Shown here: positions 8,957-15,260 of the stretch, one piece after another
Numbering within the stretch: the stretch's first letter is position 1
Layout: each line of letters begins with the position of its first letter
IMG/VR virus record: IMGVR_UViG_3300021400_000004
Length of the DNA stretch: 20,000 nucleotides
From: an uncultured virus (IMG/VR IMGVR_UViG_3300021400_000004)
Taxonomy: Duplodnaviria > Heunggongvirae > Uroviricota > Caudoviricetes
Strand: one strand, 5' to 3'
Translations under genes and position numbers: made by a program
Notes under the pieces: model-generated
Database searches by the model: none
Seen by the model: only the letters and a program-made list of their open reading frames with translations
Told to the model about the DNA's origin: nothing

Positions 8957-9584
8957 CTTTAATAATTTAACTATAATAATAAATGATTAGACTTTCGCCT
9001 TACTTACATTACCTTCCTTTTTATTCGACCAATGGAAAGATAAGTCTGAGCCAAAGGGAGCTACCCTTTAACTTCTTACCTTGCGGATACCCGAAGATAC
9101 CCTGCCTACACCATACAGGATTGATTACCTATAACTTTCACGCTCCATTCAGATGTTTTATTTTTATAAAGTTTAACCACACTTTCTTTAATTTGATCTC
9201 ATTGTAGATTTGCGCTACTCGTACCTTGACCTTCTCTTATAGATTGTCACCAATCATCAACTACAAAAAACTTCCTTATTTTCGTATTACTTAGGTTTGC
9301 GGCGGGGACGCCCCACATACCGCCTAACTAAGCTTCTTCCTCGCAGAGGCTGCCTATTACGGAAGCGAGAAGACAGTGTCTTAAAAAGCGATAACTTCAG
9401 CACATAATACTAGGAACCTAATTACATTTATTAGGCATTTCTTATATCACTATAAGAACCTTTAGAATTTTTAAAAAGTATCCTTAGTAAAAACCTTATT
9501 ACCCTTGATTAAGTATTATTCTCAGCCACATGGAGTTGTGTCTGCACTGAGTTAATATTTATTATTATAATTAAATTATCAAAG
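8957..9584 (-). ncRNA. Large structured ncRNA, ROOL/GOLLD-like (~630 nt)
   Basis: 28-bp terminal stem (9557-9584 with 8957-8984) whose two deviations are G-U pairs on the minus strand only; many internal hairpins; own promoter; adjacent to tRNAs; no convincing ORF. Confidence 0.7.
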
Positions 9585-10282: not shown

Positions 10283-10346
10283 TATCTACCCTCTGTGCTA
10301 CGCCCAAAGACGATTTCGACTATTAAAAGGAAGTCGCTAACCTTAG

Positions 10347-10419
10347 TGGCGGAGAGGGGAGTTGAACCCCTAGCCCTTGACGTATGAAGCCACGAATCTA
10401 CCTTTGATACTACTCCGCG
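10347..10419 (-). tRNA. trnM: tRNA with CAU anticodon (Met; initiator-like 5' end, atypical)
   Basis: CGCGGAG/CTCCGCC with C1:C72 mismatch; TGGC-TTCATAC-GTCA; GGTTCAACTCC. Confidence 0.8.
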
Positions 10420-11199
10420 TTATATTTTTTCCCATTCTTCTTCAGAATAAGATTTTATTTCTTGTTTTTTAAATGGTAAATTATAACTTTTACACCATTT
10501 TCTTATACTGTTATCAGTAACATTATATTTTTTACCTATTTGAACAAACGAAGTTGTTCTAATTAATTGTTTCAATTCTTCTCTTGTTACAGGTCTAGTT
10601 GCTAATCCTTCTTGTTTTTGAATTTCATGTCTACAATCTTGACAATACTCTGCATTTTTACTAACTATTTTATGACATTTTTTACAATAAAAGATTTGTT
10701 TTTTAGTTCTTGTGCAGTCAAAAGGACTAATTCTTAATGGATAAATTAATTTACTTTCTCTCCAAGTTCTTCCTGTATTAATATCTCTAATAGTATCTTC
10801 ATGCACTCCATATATCTTTGCAATTTGAGGATAAGATAAATTCGATTTTGTTTTATCCAATAAAATTTTTTGAATGTCTTTTACTTGAGCATAAGTTAAT
10901 TTCACTCCATGAACTTGATAATCTCCACCTTCTGTTTGATTATAAACTGGATTATAATATTTTATCCAATAATGTTCTCTTTCATTAAGCTTATTAATAT
11001 CGCATTCTTCAATAACTTCAAATGAAAAATTATCAATTCCATATTTCCTAAAAGCTCTATATAAAGGATAATCATACCCTTTATCATTTTTATTTTGACT
11101 TGCTACTTTATGGTCTGACCATCTTTTATTAATATTTCTACTTTGACCTATATAACAATGACCATTTAAATTATTAGTTATTTTATAAATTCCTATCAT
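10420..11199 (-). CDS. Free-standing GIY-YIG homing endonuclease with C-terminal HTH/Zn-finger DNA-binding modules
   Basis: MIGIYKITN...CYIGQS...KRW...H...E...YN; IAKIYGVHEDTI; CxxC...CxxC; IGKKYNVTDNSIRKW. Confidence 0.9.
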   Translation of the reverse strand: MIGIYKITNNLNGHCYIGQSRNINKRWSDHKVASQNKNDKGYDYPLYRAFRKYGIDNFSFEVIEECDINKLNEREHYWIKYYNPVYNQTEGGDYQVHGVKLTYAQVKDIQKILLDKTKSNLSYPQIAKIYGVHEDTIRDINTGRTWRESKLIYPLRISPFDCTRTKKQIFYCKKCHKIVSKNAEYCQDCRHEIQKQEGLATRPVTREELKQLIRTTSFVQIGKKYNVTDNSIRKWCKSYNLPFKKQEIKSYSEEEWEKI

Positions 11200-11228
11200 A
11201 GTAAAAACCTCCATTTTTTTATTTCATA

Positions 11229-13137: not shown

Positions 13138-13447
13138 TCAAAAGGGGAAGGAAGAGTCGCAGGCAGCTACCCGCCTCTTATTACTTGGTCTTACATCTTC
13201 AGCATTTCTGCCTTGTAGCCTAACTTCCATTTGAAGTATATTTCAACTCACTCTCTTATATTTATAAATAAAACAGTTAGAATCCTTTTTAGATGGTTCA
13301 GATTTTTTACCCATCTCTTCGCGCACTGACCTATTCTTTATTCTACCCTTGTAGAGCCAATCCTTCGCTGGCAAGATTCTTTTCTTAACATTGTTTGCAA
13401 CCAATTTGTTAAGTTCATTCGTTATCTCTGTTTCATTTTCTATATAT

Positions 13448-13476
13448 ATTATAATAAAAATTTTTTAAAATTTCAA
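13448..13476 (-). promoter_or_regulatory. Class-1 promoter
   Basis: TTGAAA-17-TATAAT-ATATATAGAAAA. Confidence 0.8.
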
Positions 13477-13488
13477 ATTATGTTTCTT

Positions 13489-13896
13489 TTAATAATATTT
13501 ATAAGGATAATATTTTAAATTCCATAAATTATCATCAATTTCTATTTTAGTATAGTCTATCTTTTCATCCTTATATGGATTATTACCATTCTGCCAAGTA
13601 TCAGTATCATTAGCGATAAAACGATTACCTATCTTCCATACAGTAAAGCCAGTAAAAGAAAGATTTGGAACATAATCTATACCATAGTCTTTATAATATT
13701 TAGTCTTTTTATCATATCCTCGTATAGTCGCATATAACAAACCACCGCTACCATCTTCAAATCTTTCAAAATTACTGTTTATTATATGAAATACAAATCT
13801 ACCATTCCATAAAAAATCATTCTCTATTGATTTATTCAATTCTCTTACAAGTTTATTTAACTTATGCTGATACTTTTTTCTTAATTTATCTCTCAT
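13489..13896 (-). CDS. Hypothetical protein
   Basis: ORF with AGGATGTG RBS and own class-1 promoter. Confidence 0.8.
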   Translation of the reverse strand: MRDKLRKKYQHKLNKLVRELNKSIENDFLWNGRFVFHIINSNFERFEDGSGGLLYATIRGYDKKTKYYKDYGIDYVPNLSFTGFTVWKIGNRFIANDTDTWQNGNNPYKDEKIDYTKIEIDDNLWNLKYYPYKYY

Positions 13897-13927
13897 AATT
13901 ATCACATCCTTTTTATTTTCTATAATA

Positions 13928-13955
13928 ATTATAGCAAAAATTTTATGAATTTCAA
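13928..13955 (-). promoter_or_regulatory. Class-1 promoter (extended -10)
   Basis: TTGAAA-16-TATAAT with TG at the extended -10 position. Confidence 0.7.
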
Positions 13956-13956
13956 A

Positions 13957-14313
13957 TTAAATCTCTTTAAGTAAATTTTTGAATATTTTATCAACTTCTA
14001 ATTTTTTAAGTTCTTTTCGAGCAAAAACATTATAACCAGAATAAATAATATCTCCATTATTTATATAATTAGTTTCAACAAGATCTTTGAGTATATCGCC
14101 TATATATGGCTTTAAACAATAAATTGTTTTCCATCCATACTTTTTAGAATTTTCATAATCCTGTTTGGCATACTCTACATATTCTCTACAAGAACTTGAA
14201 TCATACCCAAGATAATAAGTATGCTCAAAAATTGAATTTTCATTATCATAAATTTTAACTTCTACTCTATCTGAATTTAAACCCATAATATATCTTATAT
14301 TCATTTTTGGCAT
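13957..14313 (-). CDS. Hypothetical protein
   Basis: Likely start MPKMNI after GAGG; upstream extension in track runs through promoter and tRNA. Confidence 0.8.
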   Translation of the reverse strand: MPKMNIRYIMGLNSDRVEVKIYDNENSIFEHTYYLGYDSSSCREYVEYAKQDYENSKKYGWKTIYCLKPYIGDILKDLVETNYINNGDIIYSGYNVFARKELKKLEVDKIFKNLLKEI

Positions 14314-14347
14314 ATAATTATTACCTCTTTCTTTATTTTCTATAATA

Positions 14348-14376
14348 ATTATAATAAAAATTTTTAAATTTTGCAA
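14348..14376 (-). promoter_or_regulatory. Class-1 promoter
   Basis: TTGCAA-17-TATAAT. Confidence 0.75.
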
Positions 14377-14424
14377 GTTGGAGGTAGAGGGAATCGAACC
14401 CACTCGAGCCATAAGGCATGTGAT

Positions 14425-14841
14425 TTATGCCTTATCCGAGAATTGAACTCGGTATTTATAAGTTTGAAATCCTTGATTATTTTTATTTGGTTCTGTTCTT
14501 AAAGAAATTATTTGTTTAGTTGTAGTAATATCTTTAATAGGTATTAACCACATATTTAAATCTTTATTTACACAGAATAAATAATCAAGCTCAGAGTGAT
14601 TTAAAAGATTATCATAGACTTTGCCATTGGTTCCACCAGTTGAACGAAAATCTATTCTATCATCTTGTGTTTGAGTGGCTTTACATTGTACAGTCTCAAA
14701 CTTTCCATCTTTTTCAATCACTATGTCATACCACTGAGTGTCATTCATTGGTATAGATACTGTATAACCATGTATAGTAAAATAATTTATTGCCATACTT
14801 AAGCCAATTCTACCAGTTTGTTTTCTGTTAATTTCATTCAT
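14425..14841 (-). CDS. PD-(D/E)XK endonuclease resembling the group I intron-associated I-Ssp6803I/PDDEXK_5 type
   Basis: 138 aa, AAGGAG RBS; GYTVSIP...YDIVIE...VQCK...DYLF pattern. Confidence 0.8.
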   Translation of the reverse strand: MNEINRKQTGRIGLSMAINYFTIHGYTVSIPMNDTQWYDIVIEKDGKFETVQCKATQTQDDRIDFRSTGGTNGKVYDNLLNHSELDYLFCVNKDLNMWLIPIKDITTTKQIISLRTEPNKNNQGFQTYKYRVQFSDKA

Positions 14842-14862
14842 TATAAAAACTCCTTTTAAGAC
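14428..14862 (-). mobile_element. 435-nt intervening sequence with tRNA-mimic ends, encoding an endonuclease
   Basis: Starts GTCTTAA, ends CCGAG-TTCAATT-CTCGG-ATAAGGC-A. Confidence 0.8.
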
Positions 14863-15036
14863 CAGTCACATCCGTCTCCTTAGCGGTTTATACCTCCTTA
14901 AAGTTCTAAATCACATCGGCTCATTACCCGTGTATCTCGGGGACATAACCGAACCATTACCGAACAATACAGGTATTGTCTTTTCTAGTACTCTCGATTT
15001 AGTTGCTTCGTGCATGATTTAATATGTCTGCCTAAG

Positions 15037-15122
15037 CGCCGCAGATAGGACTTGCACCTATATACCATTTCTGGCTACTTGTTTTCAAGACAAGGGCTCC
15101 CACTATACTGAGCGACTGCGGC
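15037..15122 (-). tRNA. trnS: tRNA-Ser(UGA)
   Basis: GCCGCAG/CTGCGGC G; CTTGT-CTTGAAA-ACAAG; variable arm; variant T loop TGCAAGT. Confidence 0.88.
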
Positions 15123-15260
15123 TAAAATATAATCATATTTCATCTACCCCATCTATTCTGTCCTCCGACGGGTTGAGAGGTTGCTGAGCAACATTTATAC
15201 TAATTACGACCTCACTCGCGGTCACAGGTCACCAGATCTCTGGCGAAATATGATTATGAA

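Follow-up and report, generated by a model that had tools for sequence, protein, structure and literature searches.

How can a phage tRNA gene be of use when its anticodon loop is occupied by the gene of a nuclease? The question is raised by a locus in a stretch of 20,000 nucleotides (hereafter the window) from an uncultured virus of the Caudoviricetes (IMG/VR record IMGVR_UViG_3300021400_000004), a phage-like region in which every gene lies on the minus strand. ARAGORN identified eight tRNA genes in the window (Gln, Leu, Met, Glu, Pro, Asn, Ser, Ser) and no tRNA-Tyr. A tRNA-Tyr(GUA) gene is present on the minus strand, interrupted between G34 and U35 by a 435-nucleotide (nt) insert (14862..14428) whose two ends together imitate the end of a tRNA and which consists almost entirely of a nuclease open reading frame (ORF). 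It is probable, to a modest degree of confidence, that the stretch around the 3' end of this insert, singled out in a first-pass annotation made from the letters of the window, is the 3' junction of a tRNA-shaped, nuclease-carrying intron, which would be excised by tRNA-processing enzymes and its exons religated. A ribozyme-less intron of this shape is the main result of the present analysis; the imitation of the tRNA end and a nuclease stop codon supplied by the anticodon generalise to a clade of related loci, whereas a hairpin described across the same junction does not.

An interrupted tRNA-Tyr gene and its nuclease

The interrupted gene and its reading frame comprise the following parts.

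14863..14897, minus strand: exon 1 of tRNA-Tyr(GUA), with the acceptor 5' strand, the D arm, the anticodon stem 5' strand TGTGA and the loop bases C32, U33 and G34
14428..14862, minus strand: insert, intron-like, 435 nt; its first base is the G of an acceptor-like stem and its last a discriminator-like A
14850..14855, minus strand: Shine-Dalgarno-like AAGGAG, 8 nt ahead of the ATG at 14841
14425..14841, minus strand: nuclease ORF of 138 amino acids, including its TAA; PF11645 (PDDEXK_5), PD-(D/E)XK homing-endonuclease family
14425..14427, minus strand: stop codon TAA of the nuclease ORF, identical with U35, A36 and A37 of tRNA-Tyr
14379..14427, minus strand: exon 2 of tRNA-Tyr, with U35 to A38, the anticodon stem 3' strand TCACA, a long variable arm, the T arm, the acceptor 3' strand and A73

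Exon 1 (GGAGGTATAAACCGCTAAGGAGACGGATGTGACTG, 14897-14863) begins with GGAGGTA and ends with TGTGACTG, the insert (14862-14428) starts with GTCTTAAAAGGAG and ends with GGATAAGGCA, and exon 2 (TAAATCACATGCCTTATGGCTCGAGTGGGTTCGATTCCCTCTACCTCCA, 14427-14379) contains the variable arm TGCCTTATGGC and does not encode CCA. The nearest virus record, here termed G001, has 28% of sampled words in common with the window; at this locus its 94% match to the window extends as far as 14863 and continues directly at 14427, no letters intervening, and ARAGORN calls an uninterrupted tRNA-Tyr(gta) in it. Since this uninterrupted allele fixes both ends, the junction G34|U35 is unambiguous. When the exact insert was removed from the window's locus, ARAGORN likewise called tRNA-Tyr(gta), and it called no tRNA with the insert left in. 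The two alleles differ at 3 of the 35 positions of exon 1, at 7 positions of the variable arm (window 14408-14418, minus strand) and at 0 of the 29 positions of the T arm and acceptor. The variable arm is thus a hot spot of change. Cleavage of the tRNA-Tyr variable loop is described for the Septu defence system (PMC13096335) and could be a driver of the divergence of this arm. A BLASTN search of the locus against a phage GenBank collection and a search of viral contigs for an exact 32-nt exon-2 pattern gave no match.

The ORF (14841..14425) matches Pfam PF11645 over residues 5-123 (E 1.1e-17, 64.7 bits for a curated cut-off of 26.1), a family equated with that of the homing endonuclease I-Ssp6803I in PMC3424549. 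No relevant match was obtained in a search of the sequences of solved structures, either with the single protein (E<=1) or with a profile (E<=0.01). The insert has 21 nt of non-coding sequence ahead of the ATG and none behind the last codon, the C-terminus ...YRVQFSDKA running to the last base of the insert. GGAG or GAGG motifs occupy the place of the Shine-Dalgarno-like sequence in the inserts of relatives.

Related loci, designated by L numbers, were collected through nuclease relatives in viral contigs (9 loci, then 100 relatives of which 80 were kept) and in species genomes (5 loci), and through an insert-end pattern in metagenome contigs (6 loci, one being the window's own sequence). Scans of viral contigs with a pattern of the imitated T arm were swamped by the T arms of real tRNAs and recovered, among the matches listed, one known locus. 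The relatives exhibit two layouts: the ORF stands free, a few nt upstream of an intact tRNA-Tyr, as in 20 of the 58 loci with an extractable full-length ORF, or it lies inside the anticodon loop of tRNA-Tyr. Both junctions were defined in 19 interrupted loci, which represent 16 distinct end structures. This was achieved by a brute-force splice test, the intron mode of ARAGORN having given noise and misplaced introns. Excluded from the counts are L048-51, L073, L057, L076-78 and L090, with unsolved junctions, the decayed L012/L060 and the odd L017/18.

Several observations on the wider sample may be added. The distant nuclease relatives with unsolved junctions (34-53% identity; L048-L051, L073, L057, L076-L078, L090) also lie between tRNA-like halves, the host tRNA of L090 being possibly tRNA-Asp. 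L027 and L024 carry broken ORFs with tRNA fragments and are decaying copies. L103 has the insert of L016 in another host tRNA, whose variable region is short, which encodes CCA and in which the junction is preceded by CAG rather than CTG (A at 33). The nuclease ORFs of L006, L007, L008 and L013 contain an in-frame TAG, of which there is none in the window's ORF; it aligns with glutamine in relatives, and these phages are therefore taken to read TAG as glutamine.

The imitated tRNA end and the anticodon-supplied stop

The ends of the insert are made up of three elements.

14856..14862, minus strand: acceptor-like 5' strand GTCTTAA (insert nt 1-7), pairing with 14435-14429 at 6 of 7 positions in the window
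14436..14452, minus strand: T-arm mimic CCGAG-TTCAATT-CTCGG, encoding R-V-Q-F-S; sub-threshold Rfam match to the tmRNA T arm, with covarying stem pairs
14428..14435, minus strand: acceptor-like 3' strand ATAAGGC and discriminator-like A, the last 8 nt of the insert

In all 19 loci, whose inserts measure 435-445 nt, insert nt 1-7 pair with the 7 nt directly 3' of a T-arm-like hairpin with a 5-base-pair (bp) stem and a 7-nt loop of the type TTCAATT, TTCAAAT, TTCGATT or TGCAATT. Over the 16 structures, the acceptor-like stem forms a mean of 6.25 of 7 pairs in register, as against 1.7-3.5 when slid by 1-3 nt and 4.09 with non-cognate ends, and up to five pair types occur per position. The T stem takes the forms CCGAG/CTCGG, TCGAG/CTCGA, CCAAG/CTTGG, CTTAG/CTAAG and TTTAG/CTAAA. 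The proposal of the first-pass annotation that the last codons of the ORF double as a mimic of the T arm and acceptor is thus corroborated by covariation across 16 distinct structures.

The boundaries of this minihelix are exact. Of the interrupted genes, 14 have the insert at 34|35 and 5 at 35|36, and at both points, in 19 of 19 loci, the insert starts at stem position +1, with zero spare nt between exon and minihelix; position +1 is G in 14 of the 16 structures. Beyond the stem there follows a single nt in 10 loci (A, once T) and NCCA in 9 (ACCA, CCCA or TCCA), every insert with 4 nt past the stem ending in CCA. Because of this pairing register and the N or NCCA end, the insert corresponds to positions +1 to 73 (or 76) of an acceptor/T-arm minihelix. 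Its ending also agrees with that of the host gene: by automatic call, CCA-ending inserts lie in CCA-encoding tRNA-Tyr genes in 7 of 9 cases and CCA-less inserts in CCA-less genes in 9 of 10 (Fisher p 0.005). The two misses, L019 and L028, are register errors of the script; by eye both have ACCA, which makes the first figure 9/9.

The 3' end of the ORF bears traces of this second role. The T stem of the window's insert is written in locally rare codons (CGA, 13 of 134 Arg codons; TCG, 18 of 305 Ser codons), and the last 3-4 residues of the nuclease are hypervariable, free-standing relatives stopping earlier at ...LVKI. The rare codons and the hypervariable residues lead us to conclude that RNA pairing, not protein function, shapes the end of the frame. 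On the plus strand, antisense to all genes, the mimic (window 14436-14452) followed by TATTTATAAG fits a simple terminator pattern, a match that is probably a by-product of the coding sequence.

In the clade of the window's locus, the frame has to cross both the T-arm mimic and the acceptor strand and stays open up to the final base of the insert, so that the UAA of U35-A36-A37 is the first stop it meets. That the tRNA anticodon supplies the nuclease stop (TAA, 14427-14425), as had been noticed for the window, recurs in 13 of the 19 interrupted loci, all of one nuclease clade, with T stems YYGAG/CTCGR or CCAAG/CTTGG; being shared in this way, it is a conserved feature of that clade. The other six loci (L094, L028, L055, L061, L063 and L098) have an internal in-frame TAA in the 3' strand of a T stem YTTAG/CTAAR, and their excised RNA would therefore keep a stop. 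Internal stops in homologous inserts had been named as evidence that would speak against the initial interpretation: they are present in 6 of 19 relatives, and the exon-supplied TAA stands in 13. In the nuclease tree (midpoint root, moderate support) the direction of change between internal and exon-supplied TAA is not resolved; the 34|35 inserts form one moderately supported clade, L094 included. As assembled, the ORF of L023 is frameshifted within a run of A. The anticodon-supplied stop is best seen as a by-product of an ORF that was run through the mimic, not as a requirement of such inserts. If the insert is cut at its ends, it would follow, as the first-pass annotation had argued, that the excised RNA lacks a stop codon. 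It is likewise a logical consequence that, in the clade of the window's locus, properly terminated nuclease could be made from the precursor before splicing and from no other RNA. To complete the ORF, a ribosome would have to melt the T-arm/acceptor mimic.

Possible routes of excision and rival explanations

Evidence in favour of a joining of the exons comes from the split genes. Once the insert is removed in silico, ARAGORN calls tRNA-Tyr(gta) in 15 of 19 loci, compared with 0 of 19 with the insert left in. Pairing is retained in the acceptor and anticodon stems of these genes (fully in the anticodon stems) although the sequences of the stems vary between loci, and close relatives with the same insert (L016, L101, L102) display, by eye, paired changes in the acceptor, anticodon and D stems. 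Exact boundaries at two insertion points would be hard to explain if exact excision were not under selection.

No group I or group II intron or small ribozyme was found with Rfam in the window at gathering score, over 14300-15200 at E<=10, or in 14 related loci at E<=0.5. Group I introns possess a catalytic core of about 200 nt of non-coding sequence and follow the rule of a U at the last exon-1 position and a G as the last intron base. In the window exon 1 ends with G34 and the insert with A; the inserts of relatives end with A or T, and the 35|36 group has U at -1 but ends with A. A group I intron was rejected on these grounds: no Rfam covariance match, only 21 nt of non-coding sequence and misfitting junction bases. 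The bulge-helix-bulge, which carries the splice sites in two 3-nt bulges with a 4-bp helix between them, could not be drawn by eye at the junctions, no dedicated search having been run. The theta ribozymes of gut phages, which are minimal and hepatitis delta virus-like, were also rejected, as they begin with G1 directly after a tRNA and exon 2 begins with U or A; the available text of the paper describing them mentions introns 0 times (10.1101/2023.06.13.544163).

We propose instead that the insert is released as if it were a tRNA. The G at +1, the 7+5 bp geometry and the N or NCCA ends constitute the shape that RNase P, RNase Z and the CCA-adding enzyme recognise. RNase P would cut the 5' junction and an RNase Z-type tRNA 3'-end endonuclease the 3' junction, which would leave 3'-OH and 5'-phosphate ends in the anticodon loop, and a phage-encoded ATP-dependent RNA ligase may then reseal the exons. 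Among the insert-bearing phage records of at least 90% completeness, 8 of 8 encode a ligase of this kind (Rnl1, Rnl2 or DRB0094 type), a count that does not include the phage of the window. RtcB was found in 0 of 21 phage records, and in 10 of 14 bacterial control genomes. More tentatively, these loci may well represent an uncharacterised class of ribozyme-less phage introns, with minihelix ends, splice sites set by RNase P and a 3' endonuclease, a phage ligase and, in the clade of the window's locus, a nuclease terminated only when unspliced; we hold this wider proposition to be a serious possibility that falls somewhat short of probable.

Several points weigh against this proposal. The acceptor-like stem is imperfect in the group with short tails, where 7 of 16 structures have an A-A at position 7 and 3 have a G-A at position 1, and that of L022 has two terminal mismatches. 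For 4 of the 19 spliced products ARAGORN calls no tRNA-Tyr. Decayed copies exist: in L012/L060 a deletion joins the D arm of exon 1 to about codon 35 of the nuclease, and the tRNA of L017/L018 has A at position 34 and lacks a variable arm. Bacterial RNase Z does not usually cut exactly behind an encoded CCA. RNA ligases are common in large phages and occur in at least 2 of 6 near-complete relatives with an uninterrupted tRNA-Tyr, and their presence is therefore permissive, not specific. The contigs of four RNA runs, which hold short pieces of the ORF or of relatives, cover neither junction and are neutral on splicing. In the window's locus, moreover, the minimum free energy (MFE) structure contains a hairpin, considered below, that is incompatible with the minihelix. 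Lastly, we infer cleavage by RNase P and RNase Z and the subsequent ligation from shape alone.

Other explanations were weighed against this proposal. The cassette may have broken tRNA-Tyr, so that the exons are never rejoined and the tRNA-like ends only release the nuclease mRNA from the transcript of the tRNA array and protect its 3' end. The lack of any ribozyme, the RNA-run contigs without a spliced product (their junctions being uncovered) and the decayed copies are consistent with a dead gene, as are the free-standing relatives beside an intact tRNA-Tyr and the interleaving of free-standing and inserted forms in the nuclease tree, where L021 is sister to the window's locus. Such punctuation, however, needs no exact boundaries, and these are found in every locus at two insertion points; the pairing of the acceptor and anticodon stems despite sequence differences, the paired changes among relatives with the same insert and the recovery of tRNA-Tyr in most spliced products also argue against it, and we regard it as unlikely. 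We would give about the same low probability to an intron of the same tRNA shape handled by other enzymes, with host RtcB or a kinase-phosphatase and ligase joining the exons. The reluctance of RNase Z to cut after an encoded CCA would favour this alternative, as would the frequency of RtcB in bacteria. In addition, PMC3424549 places the tRNA-splicing endonuclease within the PD-(D/E)XK superfamily, to which the nuclease also belongs by its family. Against it stand the absence of RtcB from the phage records in which ATP-dependent ligases are regular, and the failure to draw, by eye, a bulge-helix-bulge at the junctions. The G at +1, the stem lengths and the N or NCCA ends, moreover, suit RNase P and tRNA 3' processing. 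An as yet unrecognised type of self-splicing ribozyme, with a core that overlaps the coding sequence, is in our view highly improbable. In its favour, the known bacterial tRNA introns are group I introns that splice themselves, and a nuclease of PF11645 is carried by one of them (PMC3424549). A length of 435-445 nt would also suffice for a ribozyme. Yet no Rfam model matches, the only conserved RNA features are the two ends, and bases of G or U at the end of exon 1 and A or T at the end of the insert misfit the group I rule.

A further alternative is the one put forward in the first-pass annotation and concerns the following element.

14411..14435, minus strand: 9-bp hairpin ATAAGGCAT / ATGCCTTAT with the 7-nt loop AAATCAC, across the 3' junction

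According to that interpretation, the hairpin would be maintained by selection as an alternative fold, by which the precursor is switched from nuclease translation to excision or back. The description of the hairpin itself is accurate: the complementarity of 14435-14427 to 14419-14411 is perfect, and the fold is exclusive, blocking the acceptor-like stem, the variable-arm hairpin and the last pair of the anticodon stem. It is also locally improbable (p 0.0014-0.003), shuffling of the 16-nt insert tail having produced a stem of at least 9 bp with exon 2 in 0.14% of 5000 trials and 0.3% of 1500; the 20-kb window as a whole holds 5 distinct perfect hairpins of at least 9 bp (loop 3-12), compared with a mean of 1.5 in 10 mononucleotide shuffles. 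In a nearest-neighbour model it belongs to the MFE structure, with P about 0.98 in the ensemble, and both the 3' junction and the acceptor-like strand are sequestered in it. The variable arm provides its 3' arm, and it is there that the window and G001 differ, at 7 positions as against none in the T arm and acceptor. Nevertheless, the role as a switch is not sustained by the relatives. Complementarity between insert end and exon 2 is at chance level in 15 of 17 loci (combined p 0.43), only the window's locus (9 bp) and L015 (7 bp, to the T arm and not the variable arm) standing out, and in a set of 17 loci chance alone would produce one at p about 0.002 in a few per cent of cases. Cognate duplexes of insert tail and exon 2 are no stronger than non-cognate ones (RNAduplex means of -8.31 and -8.73 kcal/mol). 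The idea that complementarity to the host variable arm marks the family fails likewise, as in five loci that share the insert end GGATAAGGCA exactly the variable arm is a different one and offers no complement; the insert ends of the window recur in L016 and L099-L103, in tRNA-Tyr genes of this kind. The hairpin alone is worth -10.3 kcal/mol, and the tRNA-plus-mimic fold, itself the MFE structure in 5 of 17 loci, is only 1.3 kcal/mol less favourable in the window, the model taking no account of tRNA tertiary structure. A translating ribosome would in any case melt the mimic with or without the hairpin. Because its 3' arm lies in the lineage-specific variable arm, the hairpin is special to the lineage of the window's locus, and as it is not conserved in relatives, a switch would be at most a peculiarity of that lineage. 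We consider such a switch quite unlikely; the hairpin is most likely incidental, or at most a local modulator, and not part of the mechanism of the family.

Known systems, neighbouring elements and significance

The tRNA-shaped intron proposed here has partial counterparts in several systems. The group I intron of I-Ssp6803I sits in a cyanobacterial tRNA-fMet gene. Like the insert in the window, it unites a nuclease of PF11645 (PMC3424549) with a position in a tRNA anticodon loop. The window's insert differs from it in that it has no group I core (Rfam), 21 nt of non-coding sequence, minihelix ends and misfitting junction bases. By analogy with I-Ssp6803I, homing of the window's nuclease into insert-free alleles would be expected, the allele of G001 being a possible substrate. 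Another counterpart is found in the introns of Lak phages, termed 'enigmatic' by Devoto et al. 2019 (PMC6784885), of which the available text describes one in tRNA-Tyr and one possibly encoding a tRNA. Like the window's insert, they are anticodon-loop inserts in phage tRNAs that cannot be classified with Rfam, were delimited by insert-free alleles and include at least one that is tRNA-shaped (PMC6784885). Compared by their description only, the Lak inserts are short, and the available text describes no nuclease gene in them and proposes no mechanism (PMC6784885). In the window, unlike in the Lak inserts, a 138-codon ORF replaces the body of the 'tRNA'.

A tRNA-like domain formed by the two ends of one RNA is also known from tmRNA. 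The insert resembles it in that its ends pair as an acceptor stem stacked on a T arm and enclose an ORF, and the Rfam tmRNA model gave sub-threshold matches on the T-arm mimic in the window and in related loci. Unlike the insert, tmRNA is a free-standing gene whose ORF has its own stop. The minihelix of the insert has no G3-U70 alanine identity pair and a wobble at pair 2-71. tRNA structures also set RNA ends in mitochondrial tRNA punctuation. For MALAT1 and NEAT1, a tRNA mimic is reported to recruit RNase P and RNase Z for the same purpose (bioRxiv 10.1101/2024.10.22.619594). In both cases the cuts form ends and the flanks are not rejoined, whereas the flanks of the window's insert would have to be ligated to restore a tRNA. 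Archaeal bulge-helix-bulge introns with homing endonuclease genes are likewise nearly all ORF, removed by protein and joined by a ligase (see also PMC6125680). The insert is distinguished from these by its position (34|35 or 35|36, not 37|38), its setting in a phage of bacteria and its acceptor/T-arm mimic. T4 SegB stands free in a phage tRNA cluster, as described in PMC2330249, and in this it resembles the nuclease relatives found upstream of an intact tRNA-Tyr. Genes of the SegB type lie between tRNA genes and need no excision; the window's nuclease lies inside an anticodon loop, with tRNA-like ends. In the open-access literature of PMC and bioRxiv, no intron excised by means of a tRNA-like structure was found described.

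The tRNA array around the locus holds further elements. A ROOL RNA (Rfam, 309 bits; window 8969-9575, minus strand) adjoins the array, and ROOL is also found beside the tRNA-Tyr region in two related phage loci (L014, 1-338; L025, 1235-1793). An ORF of 264 amino acids with GIY-YIG and helix-turn-helix domains (window 10420-11214, minus strand) ends directly at the 5' end of tRNA-Met (10346-10419, minus strand) and is a candidate for a second, SegB-like free-standing homing endonuclease in the same array. A 48-nt repeat occurs in three copies (13432-13479, 13912-13959 and 14332-14379), the first of which, in the direction of transcription, begins one base past the tRNA-Tyr 3' end; each copy contains a near-consensus sigma-70-like promoter on the minus strand ahead of a small ORF, the small ORFs (13489-13905, 13957-14310) belonging to no known family, and the corresponding region of G001 carries tRNA-Cys. 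The spacer of about 135 nt between tRNA-Ser(UGA) and tRNA-Tyr (window 14898-15035, minus strand) is by eye lower in AT than its surroundings, is kept in G001 within the 94% match and has no Rfam match at E<=10; it may be a structured RNA of an unclassified kind. A sub-threshold match to the Y RNA-like family YrlA lies within the tRNA array of one related phage (L061, 96-200; 43.4 bits for a gathering score of 69).

To our knowledge, the tRNA introns of bacteria and phages known so far are self-splicing, and tRNA splicing that depends on proteins is attributed to archaea and eukaryotes. If the proposed mechanism is correct, an intron removed by imitating the end of a tRNA would constitute a third solution to tRNA splicing, whose machinery would consist of housekeeping tRNA-processing enzymes and a repair ligase, and the 'enigmatic' phage tRNA introns of 2019 would gain a testable mechanism. 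For annotation, it follows that standard tRNA finders miss split tRNA-Tyr genes, none of the 19 having been called unspliced. The overlap of an ORF, a tRNA mimic and an anticodon-supplied stop would offer a clean model for the competition between translation and RNA processing. At the level of the family, a selfish nuclease gene could by such means occupy a useful gene at little cost and without a ribozyme.

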